The notes under the pieces: generated by a model
Databases searched by the model: none
Told to the model about the DNA's origin: nothing
The model's input: the letters and a program-made list of their open reading frames with translations, nothing else
Shown: piece by piece, positions 17,810 to 49,290 of the stretch
Layout of the letters: each line of letters begins with the position of its first letter
How positions within the stretch are numbered: position 1 is the first letter of the stretch
Assembly: GCA_023129115.1 (NCBI GenBank)
Contig: JAGMCR010000006.1
Span: forward strand, 1 to 49,290
Direction of reading: 5' to 3'
From: Candidatus Iainarchaeum sp.
Lineage (GTDB): Archaea > B1Sed10-29 > WALL01
DNA: 49,290 nt
Translations under genes and position numbers: made by a program

Positions 17810-17965
17810 TGAGGGACTGGCTGTTCAAACCAACCCTTTTTCTGTTACAGGGCCGCTCGCTTGTCACAACCGAACATCCTGTGGGATGTCCGGTATGCTT
17901 GGTCCCTGAACGGTGGAAAAGCGTTGATGGAAAAGAGGTGTTTTTGTGAGGGACTGGCTCTTCAA
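17810..17965 (+). repeat. 19-nt direct repeat of a gene start (17810-17828 and 17947-17965) enclosing a long imperfect hairpin
   Basis: TGAGGGACTGGCT(G/C)TTCAA, 18/19 identical; inverted arms 17831-17854 and 17901-17926; apical stem 17869-17894. Confidence 0.75.
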
Positions 17966-41715: not shown

Positions 41716-42105
41716 TCAGCACACGACGACCGCCTGGCCCACCTGGCCAGAGCCCACGATTACATAGGCCTTTCCCCGCGTGAGGCCCGCGTTGTTGAAC
41801 GTGACCTCCTTGCTGGCGCCCGGCATAATCGACACGCCGTTCACCGTAACCAGCCCGCTGTCGTGGGCGAGTGTCAAATTCGTGTCCACCCTCGTGACGT
41901 CCATGTTGATGATGGTGGCCTGCAGCGTGCCGGCGGCGCCGGGCGTGCAGCTAACGCGCCGCGCGCTTATCTGCTGGATGGTGGGCTCGTCGTCGCCGTA
42001 GCCTGCCGCGCTCAGGCCGCCAGCCCAGAAGTAAATGCTCGCGACCGCCGTCACTGCAATGGCAATCAAGAGCACCACGCCAACAACGGGCGAAATCCCT
42101 TTCAT
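41716..42105 (-). CDS. Archaeal type IV pilin-like protein
   Basis: Class III signal peptide MKG|ISPVVGVVLLIAIAV. Confidence 0.88.
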   Translation of the reverse strand: MKGISPVVGVVLLIAIAVTAVASIYFWAGGLSAAGYGDDEPTIQQISARRVSCTPGAAGTLQATIINMDVTRVDTNLTLAHDSGLVTVNGVSIMPGASKEVTFNNAGLTRGKAYVIVGSGQVGQAVVVC

Positions 42106-42215
42106 GCAACTAACTAGTGCTAGCTTGCTTAAATGCTTTTTGAAAAAAAGGGGTACTGCCCCACCCAGTCAAGGGCGGGGGGGTTCAAAAAAGCCGATTG
42201 GCAAGCCAATGGCCC

Positions 42216-42629
42216 TTAGCACGTAATGGTTGCTTGTGCAACACCAACCGGGCCAACGATAATGTAGCTCTTGCCGTCGGTCATGCTGCCATTCGCTAGG
42301 GCGCACGGGAACGTCAGTGCAACCTGCGCGCCTGGGCCAAGATCTGCACCGAGCGCTTCGACACAGCTCGCGTTGTTGGCAACCAGCGTGAAGTTTTGGC
42401 CAGTGGCTATCAAGTCAGTGCCGAGGTTCTGCAGCATAACCGTAACGTCCGTTGGAACGCCAGCGTTGGTTGCGCACGTGACGGTCTGCGCAGTAATGAT
42501 GTTCGGCGTGTCCGGGGTGGGCTGCTTCGTAGCGAGGCCACCTACCCAAAAGTACAGGCCGACTGCGGCAATGACTGCAATAGCGATCAAGAGCACTACA
42601 GCCACGATTGGTGAAATACCTTTTCTCAT
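42216..42629 (-). CDS. Archaeal type IV pilin-like protein
   Basis: MRKG|ISPIVAVVLLIAIAV; GGAGG SD; sequons NFT, NAS, NGS. Confidence 0.9.
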   Translation of the reverse strand: MRKGISPIVAVVLLIAIAVIAAVGLYFWVGGLATKQPTPDTPNIITAQTVTCATNAGVPTDVTVMLQNLGTDLIATGQNFTLVANNASCVEALGADLGPGAQVALTFPCALANGSMTDGKSYIIVGPVGVAQATITC

Positions 42630-42714
42630 GTTTTTCGCCTCCATTTTTGATTTCTTCAATCAAACAATTATTATGGGTTCACTACCCTTTCGGGTCATTC
42701 GTCTTGCCTTAGCC

Positions 42715-43047
42715 TCAGCAGTTGAACTGCGCTGCGCCGGTGGTGGCGCCGTAGACTGAGCCAGAGCCACTGACGTATGGTACGATGACAGTCTGTCCGG
42801 GTAATAGGTCGTCTGTAGTTGCCGACGTACTATTGCCGAAAAACAGTTCCTCGGTAATGGTCTCAGTCCCGATGTTTGTTATCGTCAGCGTGGTGCCGGT
42901 GCAGAGCGCTGTGATGGTCTTGGGCGTGCTGGGCGTCGGCTGCTTGGTAGCAAGGCCGCCTACCCAAAAGTAAAGCCCAACAGCTGCGATTACTGCAATG
43001 GCAATCAGCAAGACTACTGCCACAATTGGTGAAATGCCTTTTCTCAC
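42715..43047 (-). CDS. Archaeal type IV pilin-like protein
   Basis: GTG start after GGAGGTGA SD; RKG|ISPIVAVV; N-terminus identical to the neighbouring pilin. Confidence 0.88.
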   Translation of the reverse strand: MRKGISPIVAVVLLIAIAVIAAVGLYFWVGGLATKQPTPSTPKTITALCTGTTLTITNIGTETITEELFFGNSTSATTDDLLPGQTVIVPYVSGSGSVYGATTGAAQFNC

Positions 43048-43098
43048 TTTGTTCACCTCCATAGGGTTATTTAGGTAAACCGGTTACGGCGCGCGCAT

Positions 43099-46000
43099 TT
43101 AAAAAGCTTTCGCCTTGGCCACAAAGCCACCGGAAACGCCGTACGCGCCCAGGGACGGCAGAATTCGCTCAATATCCTTGATTGGGATGCCTGTTCGGCT
43201 CGACAGCTCGTCCAGGCTCATCCGCCCGTCCGGCTGCATCCTGGAAAGCTCTTCTGAAAGCGCCATGGCCTTGATTGACTCGCTGGACGAGATTGGCGCC
43301 GCCAGCTGGCCCCGCGCGGCCTCCAGCTGCTCCCTCGCCACAGAAGCCCGCTCGTCGCCGGTCCCGAACTCAATCTGCCTGGCCTTGCCCGCCAGCTCGC
43401 CAATCTTCTGCCGCGCCTTCTCAAGGTTCCGCTCGCTGATTGGCACAACGTGCTTTTCCGCCACTTCTTTCTCCAGCCTCTCGACCTCCCTCCCCACTGC
43501 CGGGGTCGGCCGCATCTTCGCGACATCGAGCGACTCCTGCACCTTCTCCGGCACGACAGACGTGGTCGTCTTGGCTTTCGCCGCCTGGATTTCCTTCTTC
43601 AGCTTCTCCCTCTCCCGCTTCATGCCATCGAGCGACTCCTTCAGTTCCGAGAACGCGCCCAGTTCTTCCTCGACGTGCTCCCTGCGCTCGATGGCTGCCT
43701 CGGCCTGCTCCACCGCCTTGCGCGGCAGCGTCGCGGCCCTCCGCCGCAAAGAGTTAATGTCAAGCTTAAGGTCCTCGAGCGCGGACCGCTCGTAGTCGAG
43801 CAACTGCCGCGCCGCCTCCATGTCGCCCTTCTTCGCCTGCGCGAGCGCCTCGGTCAGGCCGCGCTTGTCCAGCCAGAAGTCCAGCAAGTCCTCCTCGAGA
43901 TAGGCCAGCTCCTCCTCAAGCTCCTCGCTCACGCCCTTGTCCTCGTACTCTTCCCTGATGGCGCGCACCTTCTCCAAAAACTCGACGTAGTCCTCGTCCG
44001 CCTCCCCCAGCTGCTTCTCCAGCTTCTCGAGCGAGCCGACCGACACCCTCGCGACGACGTGCTTGGGGACCGGCATGTCCCGCACAATCGCCTTGCTGCT
44101 GTCCACGTCGCCCTGCTCGGCAGCCCCTTTGGCGAGCTGCACCCTGTCGCGGATGCGCTCCATGCCCTCCCCCGCCGCGTGCTTCTCCATAACCTCCAGT
44201 GCCTTCCGCACTTCCCCGATGTCGTCCGTGCCCACGACGTGCTCCTTGAGGTCGCTGATGTGGGCGTAAATCTCGTCCCGCGTCTTCTTCTCGAGCCGCT
44301 TTATGTCGGTGTGCACGCTCTCGACTTCCCTGGAGAGCGACTCCCTGTCCCCCTTGCCCTTGCCGACCTCTTTCTCGAGCTCGGCGAGCTCGCCCTTGAT
44401 TGCGCCGATGGTGGACTCCAGCTCCTTGCCCTGCATCTCGCCCGCCTTCGCCAGCGCCTTCTCGAGGTTGACCACCCTCTCCAGCAAGAGCTTGGACTTC
44501 CCGGCCTCGCGCGTCAGCTCGTTCACCATCGAATAAAGCTTGCCCACGCCCCCCGCCAGCTCGTCGAGCTGCTCCTGCCGCGCCTCGCCGTAGCGCAGGC
44601 CCTTCTGTATATCGTCCATGGTCCTGCTGACCGAGCCAATTGACCTGGCCAGGGTCTTGAGCTCTTCCGGCGTCTCGCTCTTCAGCCTCTCCATCTCGGC
44701 GTAGAGCTTGTCGATGCGCTGCACCAGCTTGGGCGGCAATTCCTTCGCGTCCTCGCGCGCCTTCGCGATTTCGCCGCGCAGCCCGTCCAGCTGCAGCCTG
44801 ATTTTTTTCTCGCGCTCGTCGCGCATGGCCTTGAACACTTCCTTGGCGTCGCCGAGCTCGCGGTCCAGCGTCATGGTCTTCCTGTCGAACTCCGCCTCGA
44901 CTTCGGCGAGCCTCGCCCGCTGCTCCCCAAGCATCTTCCTGAAGTCCTCGCTGCCCATCGCCTTCTCGAGTGTGGCCGCCTTCTCCTTGGCCTCGCCCAT
45001 GTCGCGCCGCAGCGCCTCGAGCGCCTTCATGGCCCTGGCGTCCCGCGTCTTGCCCGCGCCCTCGCTCTTCTTCAGCTCCGCCTCAATCCCGCGCGCCCGC
45101 TCGTCGAGCGCCTCGGTCGCCGTGGAAAGCCGTGTGCCCAAATCCTTGAGGGTGTCGAGCCCCGCCTTCTTGTCCCGCATCCGTGAATAGCTCTCGATTA
45201 CCTCGACCGACTTTATGCTGCGCCTGAGCCTCTTGAGCTCGTCCCGCATCTTGCCTGCCTCGGCCTGCAGCTCTTTTACCTCGCCGTAGTGCGCGGCCTT
45301 CCCCGCCATGTCCTCGAGCGCCTCGACCTTGTTCTTCAGCGCCTCGTGCTCGCTCTCCCCCCTTGCCGCGACCTCTAGGCTCCCCTCGGTCACGAGCTGC
45401 CGCGCCAGTACGTCCACCCTCTTCTTGAGTGCCTCGTCGCCGTACGCGCTCGCGGCCTGCACGCTCGCGAGCTGGTGGCCGAGGGTGTCCAGCTCTTCCT
45501 TGAGCACGTGCACGTCCCCGCTCTCCATGAGCCGGTCCGTCAATTCGTCTACCCTCTTCTCGATTTCCTCTTCAGAAACAGCGGGGATGTGCTCCCGGAT
45601 TTCCTCGATTTCCTGGTCTAGCTCGCCCGCGCGCCTGACGAGCCGGTCTAGTATCTCCCGGTTTTCTGCACCGTCAGCTTTTTTTTTTAGCTCGCTGGTG
45701 AGCCGCTCGTCCAGTGTGTCAATCTCGTGGTGCAGCGCCTGCACGCTCTTGGCCGGCATGCCCTTCTTGAGCTCCGCCAGCTCGTCGTTGATGCGGCCAA
45801 CCTCGGCCACCGGCGACTTGGCGAGCTTGTCCTCGAACAGCTTCAGCTTCTCGAGCACCATGTTCAGGTCGACCATCTTCTTCTCGAGCGACTCGATTTT
45901 CATGTGCGTCTGCGTGAGTATCTCGTCGTCCTTCGCGCTCAGCGTGTCGCGCATCAGCCCAATCTGCTTCTTGAGCTCGCCCAGCCCGGACGTAGCCGCC

Positions 46001-46785
46001 TGCATCTCGTTGACGTGCTGGCCGAGGTTCTCAATCGAAGAGTGAATGTTCCCGAGCCGTTCGTTCAGGGACTCGGTCTGCGTCTTCAGGCTGCTCACCG
46101 CCGCGTCCGCGCCCTCGCCGATGCCCCCTGTCCCAATGCGCTTCAGTTCGCTCCCAAGGTTCGCGACGTCGACCTTGATTTGGTCGAGCTCCTGGAGGTA
46201 GGGCGGGCTCTGCATCTGCTCCATAATCATGTTGATTTTTTTGTTGAGCTCCTGGTAGTGCGAAGTGTGCGAGCGCTCGAAGTCGTCCATCTCCTTTTTG
46301 GTCGCGGCCTCGCCCCCCGTCTTGTCCAGCCCGTCTTTGATGCCGGTCAGGACGTCCATCACGTGCATCTGGGACTGTGCCAGTGACTTCACGAGGTCGT
46401 CAACGTTCTCTCCCTCGACCTCTTCCATGCTCGACACCAGGGTGTCCAGCAAATAGTCGAACTTGTCCATCATGCGCCTTGTTTCTTGAAGGTTCCGGTC
46501 AAGCATCTCGTAAATCTCGTCGTCCCTCGCCGACACCCTCTCCTCGCGCCTCTCGTCCCTCTCCTCGCGCCTGTCGTAGCGCGGCTCGCGCCTGTCGTAC
46601 TCCCTCGGCCTGGCTGGCCTCTCGTACTCGTCCCCGCGCCTCACGTACTCGCGTTGGCCCTTCGGCCGCGGCCGCCGCCTCGCCTTCTTTTCCATGAAGG
46701 TGTCGAGCTCGGCGAGCTGGGTCCGCAAAGTATCCTGGTCGCGCTTAAGCGCCTCTATCCTTGCGCGTGCCTTCTCATTGACCAT
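43099..46785 (-). CDS. Very long coiled-coil protein (1228 aa) with R/E/D low-complexity segment and C-terminal HTH-like end
   Basis: Heptad-rich E/K/L composition throughout; no Walker A, signal peptide or TM seen; ends MSLDELSSRTGIPIKDIERIL. Confidence 0.8.
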   Translation of the reverse strand: MVNEKARARIEALKRDQDTLRTQLAELDTFMEKKARRRPRPKGQREYVRRGDEYERPARPREYDRREPRYDRREERDERREERVSARDDEIYEMLDRNLQETRRMMDKFDYLLDTLVSSMEEVEGENVDDLVKSLAQSQMHVMDVLTGIKDGLDKTGGEAATKKEMDDFERSHTSHYQELNKKINMIMEQMQSPPYLQELDQIKVDVANLGSELKRIGTGGIGEGADAAVSSLKTQTESLNERLGNIHSSIENLGQHVNEMQAATSGLGELKKQIGLMRDTLSAKDDEILTQTHMKIESLEKKMVDLNMVLEKLKLFEDKLAKSPVAEVGRINDELAELKKGMPAKSVQALHHEIDTLDERLTSELKKKADGAENREILDRLVRRAGELDQEIEEIREHIPAVSEEEIEKRVDELTDRLMESGDVHVLKEELDTLGHQLASVQAASAYGDEALKKRVDVLARQLVTEGSLEVAARGESEHEALKNKVEALEDMAGKAAHYGEVKELQAEAGKMRDELKRLRRSIKSVEVIESYSRMRDKKAGLDTLKDLGTRLSTATEALDERARGIEAELKKSEGAGKTRDARAMKALEALRRDMGEAKEKAATLEKAMGSEDFRKMLGEQRARLAEVEAEFDRKTMTLDRELGDAKEVFKAMRDEREKKIRLQLDGLRGEIAKAREDAKELPPKLVQRIDKLYAEMERLKSETPEELKTLARSIGSVSRTMDDIQKGLRYGEARQEQLDELAGGVGKLYSMVNELTREAGKSKLLLERVVNLEKALAKAGEMQGKELESTIGAIKGELAELEKEVGKGKGDRESLSREVESVHTDIKRLEKKTRDEIYAHISDLKEHVVGTDDIGEVRKALEVMEKHAAGEGMERIRDRVQLAKGAAEQGDVDSSKAIVRDMPVPKHVVARVSVGSLEKLEKQLGEADEDYVEFLEKVRAIREEYEDKGVSEELEEELAYLEEDLLDFWLDKRGLTEALAQAKKGDMEAARQLLDYERSALEDLKLDINSLRRRAATLPRKAVEQAEAAIERREHVEEELGAFSELKESLDGMKREREKLKKEIQAAKAKTTTSVVPEKVQESLDVAKMRPTPAVGREVERLEKEVAEKHVVPISERNLEKARQKIGELAGKARQIEFGTGDERASVAREQLEAARGQLAAPISSSESIKAMALSEELSRMQPDGRMSLDELSSRTGIPIKDIERILPSLGAYGVSGGFVAKAKAF

Positions 46786-46819
46786 CTCGCCCCCAATAAA
46801 GCAGCGTGCATTTAAAAAG

Positions 46820-47956
46820 CTAGCGCCCGAGCTCCTTGTGCGCCCTGGCCAGCTGGTGCGACGCCTGCGCAGACATTCCCGAGACCTCGCCCGCGAGGCA
46901 CGCGGCACAAATCACTTCCGCGAGCTTCACCGCATTGCTGCCCGGCGGCTCTCCCGAGCCCGCGAGGCCGACCATTTCAAGCGCCTCGTGCTGCGTCGCC
47001 AGGCCCGTGCCGCCGCCGACCGTGCCAACTTCCAGCGCGGGCAGCTTCAGCGAAACGTGTACTCCCCCCTCAACCCTTTCGAACAACGAGAATCCAATCG
47101 ACCCGTTCACGGACTGCGCCGCGTCCTGCCCAAGCGCGATGTACATCGCCGCAATCACGTTCGCGACGTGCATGTTGAACCCGTACGACCCGGCCTGCGC
47201 GCTCCCCAGCATGTTCTTCCGGTACGCCAGGTCGACCAGCAGGTCCGACGTCGTCTTCAGTACTTCTTCCACGACCTTGTCCGGCAGCACAACTTCAGCC
47301 AAAACGGTCTTGCCCCTCCCCTCAATCATGTTGATTGCCGCGGCCTTCTTGTCCACGCACATGTTGGCGCTCGCGCTGATGTACTCCGCGCCCGTCTTTT
47401 CGGCAATCCACTCGCTGGCGTTGTGCACCCCGATAGTCACCATGTTCATTCCCATGGCGTCGCCGGTGAAGCACTCGAACCTGAGGTAAACATTCCTCCC
47501 CACAATCCACATCTTTATCTTCTTGACCTTGAGGAACCGCGAGCCCTCCCCGGTCTTTGCCGCGACCTCTTCGAAGTGCGAGTTCACCCAGTCCACGAGC
47601 GCCTTGGCCTCCCCAATGCCCTTGACCCTGAACAGCGCGCTCCGCGTCATCCGGTCCTTGATTACGATTGCCTTGGCGCCGCCGGCCTCGTTGATGGCGG
47701 TGCACCCCCGGTTCACCGAAGCCACCAGCGCGCCCTCTGTGGTCGCCAATGGAATAAGCCTTTCCTCGCCATTGACCAGAAGCGGCCCCGCTGCGCCGAG
47801 CGGCAGCTGCGTCGCGCCTATGAGGTTCTCGACGTTTTTCTTCATCGCGCTTTCTTCGTCGAACGTGAACCGCGAGACGTGGTCGAGCTTCACCCCCGTC
47901 GCTGCCTCGATTGCCTCCCTCCTCTCTTTGGCGTCCTTCATTTCCCTGAGCTTCAT
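46820..47956 (-). CDS. hmgA: HMG-CoA reductase (class I)
   Basis: ENLIG, LATTEGALVASVNRG, DAMGMNM, GQDAAQ, GTVGGGT, AHKELGR. Confidence 0.97.
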   Translation of the reverse strand: MKLREMKDAKERREAIEAATGVKLDHVSRFTFDEESAMKKNVENLIGATQLPLGAAGPLLVNGEERLIPLATTEGALVASVNRGCTAINEAGGAKAIVIKDRMTRSALFRVKGIGEAKALVDWVNSHFEEVAAKTGEGSRFLKVKKIKMWIVGRNVYLRFECFTGDAMGMNMVTIGVHNASEWIAEKTGAEYISASANMCVDKKAAAINMIEGRGKTVLAEVVLPDKVVEEVLKTTSDLLVDLAYRKNMLGSAQAGSYGFNMHVANVIAAMYIALGQDAAQSVNGSIGFSLFERVEGGVHVSLKLPALEVGTVGGGTGLATQHEALEMVGLAGSGEPPGSNAVKLAEVICAACLAGEVSGMSAQASHQLARAHKELGR

Positions 47957-48044
47957 GACGCTATTCTTTGCAGAGCCATTTAATAACTTAGCGCCGGCTT
48001 TTGACGATAAAACCCTTAAATACCTCCATGCCCCTTAACCACGC

Positions 48045-48836
48045 ATGCGCGGGGCCCTGCTGTTTGCATTGCTTATGCTCACAGCGCTTGCGCTGCCGCA
48101 GTGGAGCGGCGAGTTCTCAATCGTGGACTCCAGTGCCACGGCCAAAGTCACAGTGTCCGGCGAAAGCCCGCTCGCCATCGACATCCCCAGCGGCGCCTCA
48201 ATCACTGGCGCGAACTATTCCAACGGCACCGCAGTGTTCAACAAATCGTTTTCCTACTCCTACTCCGCGGACTCGCTCCTCGCGGACAGCAACGGGGACA
48301 AGCTCTTCCTGTTCGTGCTCGACCAGCCCACCGAGTTCAACTACACCGTGACTGCATTCCTCCCGCCGGGGGTCTCAATCGAGTCACCCGCCCCGGACTC
48401 TTCCTACGTCACGGACGGCAGCCGCATCGGCGCGCGGTGGGCAGGCACCGCCGGCCAAGCGCAGTTCAGCCTGCGCTACCGTGGCGCCCGTGGCGCCCGT
48501 GGCCCCGTGGTCCAGTTCATCGAGACCGACATCCCAATCGTGGACAAGACGATTTTCCTGCCCGGCATCATTCTCGCCTTCCTGTTCGGCTACTTCCTGG
48601 CGGCCGGCACGGTCGCGGCGCTGTTCCAGCGCATCAGGCTCATCACCGCCGGCATGAATGAGGACGAGAAGTCCATTGTCTACCTGCTCCGGGACGGGCC
48701 GCTTGAGCAGTCTGCCATCCAGAAGAAACTTGATTTTTCAAAGGCCAAGCTCTCGCGCACACTGCGGGGGATGGAAGAGCGCAACATCCTTAAAAAGACT
48801 CCAAAAGGGAAAACAAACGTTATTTCCCTGAATTAA
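48045..48836 (+). CDS. Membrane-anchored wHTH transcriptional regulator with extracellular domain
   Basis: Signal peptide, beta-rich domain, TM helix, then DEKSIV..QSAIQKKLDFSKAKLSRTLRGME..GKTN. Confidence 0.85.
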   Translation: MRGALLFALLMLTALALPQWSGEFSIVDSSATAKVTVSGESPLAIDIPSGASITGANYSNGTAVFNKSFSYSYSADSLLADSNGDKLFLFVLDQPTEFNYTVTAFLPPGVSIESPAPDSSYVTDGSRIGARWAGTAGQAQFSLRYRGARGARGPVVQFIETDIPIVDKTIFLPGIILAFLFGYFLAAGTVAALFQRIRLITAGMNEDEKSIVYLLRDGPLEQSAIQKKLDFSKAKLSRTLRGMEERNILKKTPKGKTNVISLN

Positions 48837-48849
48837 GCCTTTTTCTCTC

Positions 48850-48956
48850 TTTTGGAACAATAAGGAACGTTCTGCACCATTTATCCCGGTTTCTAAGCAG
48901 CCTCGAACCGCTTGTGGAACGGTGTTCCACACTGTTCCAAAATATTAATATATAAA
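48850..48956 (+). promoter_or_regulatory. GGAAC/GTTCC box cluster followed by a TATA box
   Basis: GGAAC at 48854 and 48864; TGTGGAAC-GGT-GTTCCACA (48913-48931); GTTCCA at 48924 and 48934; AATATATAAA at 48947-48956. Confidence 0.55.
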
Positions 48957-48974
48957 CACCCGGCCTCAACCCTA

Positions 48975-49290
48975 GTGCCATGATTGGAGGGGGGCATATC
49001 CTCCATTAGGGGTTATTTAGGTAAAGCCTCCATCGCCCCCCGCCTTTCACTTTTTCAGCTGAAACTCAGCTCAACCGAACAACAACAGAACATCCTCTGG
49101 GATGTCCGGTATGGCACGTTCGACTAAAGCGGAGCCTGAAGGCTCCGCAAATAGGCATGTTTTCTTCGCCAATCGCCAAACAGCGTTTTGTCGCTTTCAG
49201 CTTAAACTAAGCCCAAACGAGAATGCCCCGGCGTTTTCCGTTGGGAAATTCGCCAGGTGCCCCGACAATCCTTTGGGATTTGCCAGGTGC
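48975..49290 (+). ncRNA. Candidate structured non-coding RNA or repeat region (runs to window end)
   Basis: No long ORF; pilin-leader complement at 49000-49025; hairpins at 49090-49105, 49129-49148, 49234-49247 and 49267-49280; repeated units with compensatory changes. Confidence 0.45.

Follow-up and report, generated by a model that had tools for sequence, protein, structure and literature searches.

A candidate small RNA directed at a pilin message behind a DUF7343 regulator gene in a DPANN-type archaeon

Close to one end of a contig from Candidatus Iainarchaeum sp., a short intergenic segment nearly repeats the leader of a pilin gene, which raises the question of what such a copy does there. 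The window, i.e. the whole stretch of DNA analyzed (49,290 nucleotides), is the entire contig C16 of the source genome G000 (1,247,405 bases, i.e. 1.25 Mb, on 19 contigs, 88.6% complete). The lineage is a small-genome DPANN-type archaeon, and the genome collection used for comparison comprises 31 genomes of the phylum and six of the family. It had been proposed that the segment gives rise to a plus-strand RNA acting in trans as antisense to the pilin mRNA, beside the gene of a membrane-anchored regulator, and that pairing between TGGAGG and CCTCCA renders this RNA switch-like. The former part of this original prediction is well supported, the switch is not. Two further pairing sites, denoted A (pilin codons 7-10) and C (start codon), and the operator repeats had been overlooked.

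The letters of the two copies are exactly as first read. Positions 49000-49025 and 43056-43079 have an exact core of 16 nt and, in addition, CCTCCAT in common; the 49-kb copy carries two insertions of one base each. When all 1,247,405 bases of the genome are searched with edits allowed, these two places alone are returned (at up to five edits of the 26-mer or up to four edits of the 24-mer), so that the motif is not an operator spread over many promoters. By a rough composition estimate, which excludes the extra 7 nt and the location on the Shine-Dalgarno (SD) sequence, about 0.06 chance 16-mers are expected over the whole 82-nt region. The pilin gene concerned (pilin 1, 42715..43047, Pfam Pilin_N, GTG start) lies on the minus strand, as had been stated. 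Its TATA box is found at 43098..43105 (minus strand), and the match ends approximately at the pilin transcript start placed from the TATA spacing.

The candidate small RNA comprises about 79 nt (48977..49055, plus strand), both ends being deduced from a conserved layout. It is intergenic and appears to possess an operator and a TATA box of its own at fixed spacing, the latter being the TATA-like sequence TATATAAA at 48949..48956, where a TATA near 48950 had been expected. The anticipated T-tract corresponds to two T runs near the 3' end (49045-47 and 49051-55). The region 48975-49056 folds with -28.6 kcal/mol (z -1.95) into a structure dominated by a GC stem, whose 5' arm (48989..48995, plus strand) pairs with the 3' arm (49035..49041, plus strand) at probabilities of 0.995-1.0. 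The element does contain both copies of CCTCCA and, upstream of them, TGGAGG. The pairing probability of TGGAGG with either CCTCCA is 0.000, and forced alternative folds reach -22.1 and -15.0 versus -28.6 kcal/mol; therefore, the switch is unsupported. A riboswitch-like leader was rejected as well, the competing folds being 6.5 and 13.6 kcal/mol worse and the downstream gene not conserved.

Known RNA classes do not account for the element. Rfam covariance models give no match over it at E up to 10, and three matches elsewhere in 42000-49290 were dismissed as chance. In the loci of the relatives G001 and G003, no model reaches the gathering score over the element; 5S rRNA is the only match in related loci. 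H/ACA or C/D guide RNAs were rejected upon inspection of sequence and folds for box motifs, K-turn and closed pocket (no lower stem, no conserved ACA, no Rfam match). The CTGA at 49059 belongs to a dispersed repeat starting at 49053. No plus-strand open reading frame (ORF) of at least 50 aa covers the element, and a scan with sigma-70 promoter and intrinsic terminator models, which are unsuited to archaea, yielded nothing relevant.

The gene preceding the element (48045..48836, plus strand) encodes a membrane-anchored winged-helix regulator with DUF7343 at its C-terminus (Pfam PF24034, E 4.9e-14). A hydrophobic N-terminus, a putative outer domain and a hydrophobic segment near residues 174-197 can be read from the sequence ahead of DUF7343, and orthologues are present in four of the five other family genomes. 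Two operator-like repeats follow the gene. The distal one (48852..48868, plus strand) is a pair of GGAAC in the opposite orientation to the proximal repeat, with TTGGAAC invariant in 5/5 aligned genomes; the proximal one (48923..48939, plus strand) is a tandem GTTCC repeat with a 10-nt period, GTTCCA being invariant in 5/5 genomes, and ends 9 nt before the TATA box. The combination of GTTCC repeat and TATA occurs once in G000. An additional perfect GGAAC/GTTCC palindrome overlaps the proximal operator (48915-48929); it is unique in the genome and was not seen in four relatives.

The same arrangement recurs in distantly related archaea. Two scans yielded 98 DUF7343 loci, from which five family members were set aside. 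Among the remaining 93, a tandem GTTCC repeat lies within 190 nt of the DUF7343 stop codon in 11 (vs 0.3% in shuffles), oriented as in G000 in ten and exclusively in inverted form in one. Nine downstream proteins were picked and scanned; eight contain DUF5667, of which seven belong to the 11 repeat loci and the eighth to a locus whose repeat is wider. The resulting regulon of DUF7343 gene, tandem TTGTTCC repeats, TATA and DUF5667 secreted protein (L135, L139, L148, L154, L156, L157, L167 and others) occurs in records labelled Woesearchaeota, Pacearchaeota and Iainarchaeum. No DUF5667 gene was found in the 88.6% complete G000. Judged from these recurring sequences, the tandem GTTCC repeat is most likely the binding site of the DUF7343 regulator. 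Same-strand protein genes stand behind the operator in the distant archaea, and therefore the promoter most likely faces the plus strand in G000 too. By what is generally known of archaeal promoters, the location of the repeat directly upstream of the TATA box suggests that the DUF7343 regulator acts as an activator. Outside the family, the operator-TATA pattern was not found in the 25 genomes of the class, by a search that also missed the variant form in G004. Largely open-access texts contain no full-text mention of DUF7343, for which these repeats provide a first candidate binding site and regulon.

Within the family, the layout of operator, TATA, 5' seed and anti-SD is preserved in all five regulator-holding genomes (G000, G001, G003, G004 and G005), which represent four genera, with two sharing a genus. 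A TATA-like box is located 23-29 nt upstream of a conserved RNA 5' end of the GC(C)AY type in each of them, followed by a CCTCC anti-SD; apart from CCTCC, the loop sequences vary. A long GC stem surrounds the anti-SD loop in four of the five RNAs, with G-C/C-G swaps between genomes. These swaps were read from a comparison anchored by hand; in the MAFFT alignment of the RNAs, the stem is aligned too badly to count pairs. The G004 RNA is a minimal form of about 45 nt. The sixth family member, G002 (same genus as G000, 84% complete), was left out of absences: its locus is probably unassembled, because orthologues of both the regulator and the neighboring HMG-CoA reductase are missing. A metagenome scan detected one close relative (L089), whose contig stops just past the distal operator. 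No relative emerged when named genomes were scanned with a single protein; an alignment scan was successful. A second seed-plus-anti-SD match in G003 was discarded as chance, located inside a PEP-synthase-like reading frame.

This fixed arrangement also bears on two other readings: the minus-strand GGAGG could serve as SD sequence for a small protein encoded on that strand, or the repeat could be a DNA site bound by a protein. A 53-aa minus-strand ORF indeed starts at 48981, and G003 carries AGGAGGTG at normal spacing ahead of an ATG. However, the frames vary in start and length among the genomes, the one in G004 is closed by an early stop, and in none of the five genomes does this strand show a TATA-like box within 60 nt beyond the element, which also speaks against transcription from the minus strand only. 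A DNA-binding site is at odds with the mere two copies of the repeat in the genome. Both variants are thus given the faintest chance among the explanations weighed here.

The surroundings of the RNA are largely shared as well. The minus-strand genes near it encode HMG-CoA reductase, a long coiled-coil protein, three Pilin_N proteins and an oligosaccharyl transferase, and their order is preserved in G001, G004 and G005; the pilin gene of G003 sits on a separate contig. The distance from RNA to pilin start is 5.9 kb in G000 and 5.6-7.7 kb in G001, G004 and G005. The coiled-coil protein (about 1230 aa, 43099-46800, minus strand) is encoded immediately upstream of the pilin cluster, is present in G001, G004 (as two ORFs) and G005, and is assigned to no convincing family by Pfam. 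Several large proteins with a pilin-like signal peptide at their start (open frames of 700-1100 aa) are encoded on contigs C4, C15, C17, C18 and C19 of G000. The dispersed repeat at the window end (49053-49290, also at 17866-17897) is modular, harbors short hairpins and forms about 28 clusters on 12 of the 19 contigs. Several of these adjoin tRNA genes, which are strongly clustered on C4 (17/40), and the copy at the window end probably broke the assembly there. Contig C17 opens with a 25-nt near-copy of the C16 end (L088:1-25) and carries a second small promoter unit; therefore, it probably continues the window, with the join unproven because the overlap consists of repeat sequence. In the second unit (L088:686-775), a TATA and the invariant GTCGCCACAG precede a hairpin, whose sequence varies, and a T run; another hairpin often follows. 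It occurs once per genome in the same five of the 31 genomes, near the same locus in G001, G003, G004 and G005 too, is matched by no Rfam model and probably represents another small RNA specific to the family. In G000 alone, the two small RNA units are separated by an insertion with two small minus-strand ORFs (73 and 87 aa, L088:100-570) that resemble an antitoxin-toxin pair.

How the candidate RNA would contact the pilin message is predicted by three sites. Site B (49000..49027, plus strand) is the loop with the reported duplicate and is complementary to the whole predicted pilin 1 leader including its GGAGG (43056..43081, minus strand), as originally proposed; conservation and covariation lend this pairing good support. 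The duplex amounts to -37.6 kcal/mol, or -18.9 kcal/mol after correction for accessibility. The G000 assembly lacks a recognizable 16S 3' end, and the anti-SD sequence used is therefore the generally known one. Site A (48976..48987, plus strand) is formed by the RNA 5' end and is complementary to pilin codons 7-10 (P-I-V-A; 43018..43029, minus strand) in a 12-bp helix with two G-U pairs; five of 1139 genes reach a helix of at least 12 with it, the pilin gene among them. Site A matches the own pilin at 18/18 positions in G004 and at 12/12 in G001, where CCC replaces the CCA of G000, and in bulged form in G003 and G005. Site C (49042..49055, plus strand), the 3' flank, pairs with the start codon and codons 2-5 (43036..43050, minus strand) at -16.5 kcal/mol, 0.5% of shuffled flanks being as good. 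CAC opposes GUG in G000 and CAU opposes AUG in G003. From its sequence, the T run in site C likely doubles as terminator, and a U-rich tail is expected of any terminator. When co-folded with codons 1-12, the RNAs of G000, G001 and G003 form a three-way junction of site A, stem and site C, while that of G004 forms a long direct duplex and that of G005 pairs mostly through site A. A second anti-SD segment (49026..49033, plus strand) is an exact 8-nt complement of the SD region of pilin 2 (42637-42644). Pilin 2 (42216..42629, minus strand) is a possible second target, with 11 bp to site A at 42601-42611; a second CCTCC with a 7-nt pilin 2 match is also present in G001 and thus in both RNA-bearing genomes of genus g1.

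Pilin 1 stands out among the genes that such an RNA could reach. It ranks first of 1139 called genes in G000 (z -4.96) and, when accessibility is included, attains -18.9 versus -15.3 kcal/mol for the best background gene (925 of 1139 genes scanned). For the relatives, 0.23-0.38 Mb were sampled per genome and pilin 1 was scored explicitly. It comes first by energy against 284 (G001), 319 (G005) and 418 (G004) sampled genes; in G003, 14 of 241 background genes equal or exceed it, placing it 15th of 242. By exact match, it is first in all five genomes. Plain co-folding of the region -40 to +45, a method that cannot pair inside a loop, gives pilin 1 -14.7 kcal/mol, with at least eight of 1134 genes better. 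Site C is matched equally well by 27 of 1139 genes in G000.

These rankings bear on whether the RNA is rather a broad anti-SD RNA for many envelope messages, with pilin as one target among several. GGAGG precedes a possible start in 94 of 1139 called genes, and site A also fits pilin 2 in G000 (11 bp) and pilin 4 in G004 (15 nt). In G004, a secreted helical protein of 413 aa (L235:265-1503, no clear Pfam family) is a possible second target; its leader and the loop of the G004 RNA match over 15 nt, versus 9 nt with pilin. Yet the G000 homologue of this protein pairs weakly with the loop (-11.6), and the combination of sites A and B is best for pilin 1, unmatched by any other gene scored, in four of the five genomes. 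A broad regulator of this kind is therefore considered quite improbable.

If pairing is what is selected, each RNA should fit the pilin of its own genome, and this is found. Among the 120 possible assignments of five RNAs to five pilin 1 messages, the own-genome assignment ranks first for A+B (-242.9; next -232.8), for site B alone and for A+C co-folding, is tied best for site A alone, and ranks fourth for site C (first of 24 without G004, i.e. for the four stem-bearing RNAs). Taken one RNA at a time, the own pilin 1 is the best partner in 3/5 genomes by A+B, in 3/5 by co-folding and in 2/5 by single-site accessibility-corrected energy. These ranks overstate certainty, because the sites were chosen after sequence inspection and only five kindred genomes, two of one genus, are compared; gene starts stem from a simple ORF caller. 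Across the five genomes, site A sums to -114.9 versus -78.3 +/- 8.7 for synonymous recodings (0/2000 as good). Taken singly, it is non-significant in three of them, where 20% (G000), 20% (G003) and 9% (G005) of recodings are as good. Site B sums to -128.0 versus -81.4 +/- 6.8 for leader shuffles with GGAGG fixed (0/2000 as good). For site C, 0.13% of 3000 shuffles are as good in sum; it fails in G004 (83% as good) and is weak in G005 (17%). Taken together, the ranks, recodings and shuffles indicate that the RNA-pilin pairing is conserved with compensatory change, within the limits of five genomes and sites chosen after inspection.

A DNA relic or conversion tract would likewise produce resemblance: inverted copies of pilin 5' pieces could be alike through recent copying and not through RNA function. 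Sites A and B are ordered as in the pilin gene, and the long loop match of G000 is absent from the loops of the other genomes and appears recently copied. Site C, however, lies 3' of site B and breaks the colinear order, so that the segment does not read as the leftover leader of a deleted pilin gene. Moreover, the complementarity is partial, and several matches contain G-U pairs and bulges, which fit pairing between RNAs but not identity at the DNA level. The match stops where the pilin transcript is predicted to begin, and the spacing behind a conserved plus-strand promoter is fixed in 5/5 genomes. A relic is thus regarded as highly unlikely. In view of its sequence features, the conserved element very probably represents a new family of small RNAs that target the pilin message and, unusually, do so through several sites.

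The same RNA and target could also act with the opposite sign, i.e. pairing might free a hidden SD or shield the mRNA from nucleases, so that pilin rises. The pilin 1 leader alone folds into a hairpin that hides its own SD (-10.9 kcal/mol, z -2.56) and whose upstream arm is covered by the perfect core of 16 nt; in addition, sRNA154 of Methanosarcina mazei stabilizes certain targets, as stated in the available part of its description (PMC5867862). Against this, it is precisely the anti-SD CCTCC that the loops of 5/5 genomes have in common; moreover, sites A and C lie on the start and early codons and should block the ribosome site, not free it. Activation of pilin synthesis is accordingly judged improbable.

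The best explanation, for which complementarity, conservation, covariation and promoter layout were computed, is repression, and it is considered probable as a whole. An outside or envelope signal would be perceived by the membrane-anchored DUF7343 protein, which would bind next to the TATA box, at the tandem GTTCC repeats, and switch on the small RNA. The RNA would fold into its GC stem; leader and SD of the pilin message would then be bound by the loop, the start codon by the 3' flank and codons 7-10 by the 5' end. The stem is predicted to keep both flanks adjacent on codons 1-10 in a three-way junction. With SD, start and codons up to 10 covered, translation would stop and less pilin would be made. 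Signal, transcription, RNA ends, activation and repression are inferred steps of this scheme. A bolder version, which is rather doubtful, holds that this DPANN family rewired a widespread membrane sensor whose sole output is a chaperone-free clamp RNA with three guides on SD, start codon and signal-peptide codons, the loop guide being renewed in each lineage by copying the target leader. G000 harbors one Lsm gene.

Several known systems invite comparison. In enterobacteria, an envelope signal leads via sigmaE to the RNAs MicA and RybB, which pair through a 5' seed near the start of surface-protein messages; they depend on the sigma factor and on Hfq and target porins. Their resemblance to the candidate RNA is one of analogy only. 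The sRNA Arp of Acinetobacter baumannii is described, in the accessible portion of the source, to repress translation of the major type IV pilin in trans by covering the SD and the first 17 codons (PMC12338739). The candidate RNA is likewise predicted to cover the pilin SD and early codons. Arp is bacterial and pairs, as far as the same portion describes it, via two adjacent regions between terminal hairpins, whereas the candidate RNA uses the loop and both flanks of one central stem; the two are compared by description, and no homology is claimed. Among archaea, the sRNA41, sRNA154 and sRNA162 of M. mazei are intergenic RNAs, two of which (sRNA41, and sRNA154 through its loop 2) carry an anti-RBS that masks ribosome binding sites (excerpted from PMC5867862). 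The candidate RNA shares the intergenic location and ribosome-site-masking sequence, whereas the M. mazei RNAs are euryarchaeal, with metabolic targets and nitrogen control according to the same excerpts. A motility-linked regulatory RNA of Haloferax is cis-encoded, because it overlaps its own target gene, as given in the part of the report at hand (PMC13286277). Titles and abstract openings disclose no archaeal pilin-targeting RNA, although transcriptome tables in supplements could hold kin, and largely open-access texts none that joins DPANN with small RNA, antisense and pilin.

On the side of the regulator, ArnR and ArnR1 of Sulfolobus acidocaldarius are membrane-bound one-component regulators of type IV pilus-like surface structures (available part of PMC6396743). 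They belong to another Pfam family than the DUF7343 regulator and, as outlined there, act directly on pilin or archaellin promoters, whereas the only detected operator of the latter would drive an RNA. Therefore, the regulatory sign would invert relative to ArnR/ArnR1. The DUF7343-DUF5667 loci of other archaea share the regulator family, the tandem GTTCC repeat and a TATA just past the gene; their output is a secreted protein, whereas in the family of G000 it appears to be a small RNA.

Few archaeal small RNAs have known targets, and searches of the literature disclosed none for DPANN or for an archaeal pilin message. Here, a chain of sensor, operator, RNA and target can be read from sequence alone, and compensatory pairs are available from five genomes. 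If the bolder version were true, the clamp RNA would switch off the pili upon contact or an envelope signal, in an archaeon that likely depends on a host. The locus suggests that small-genome archaea may control their pili via such an RNA.
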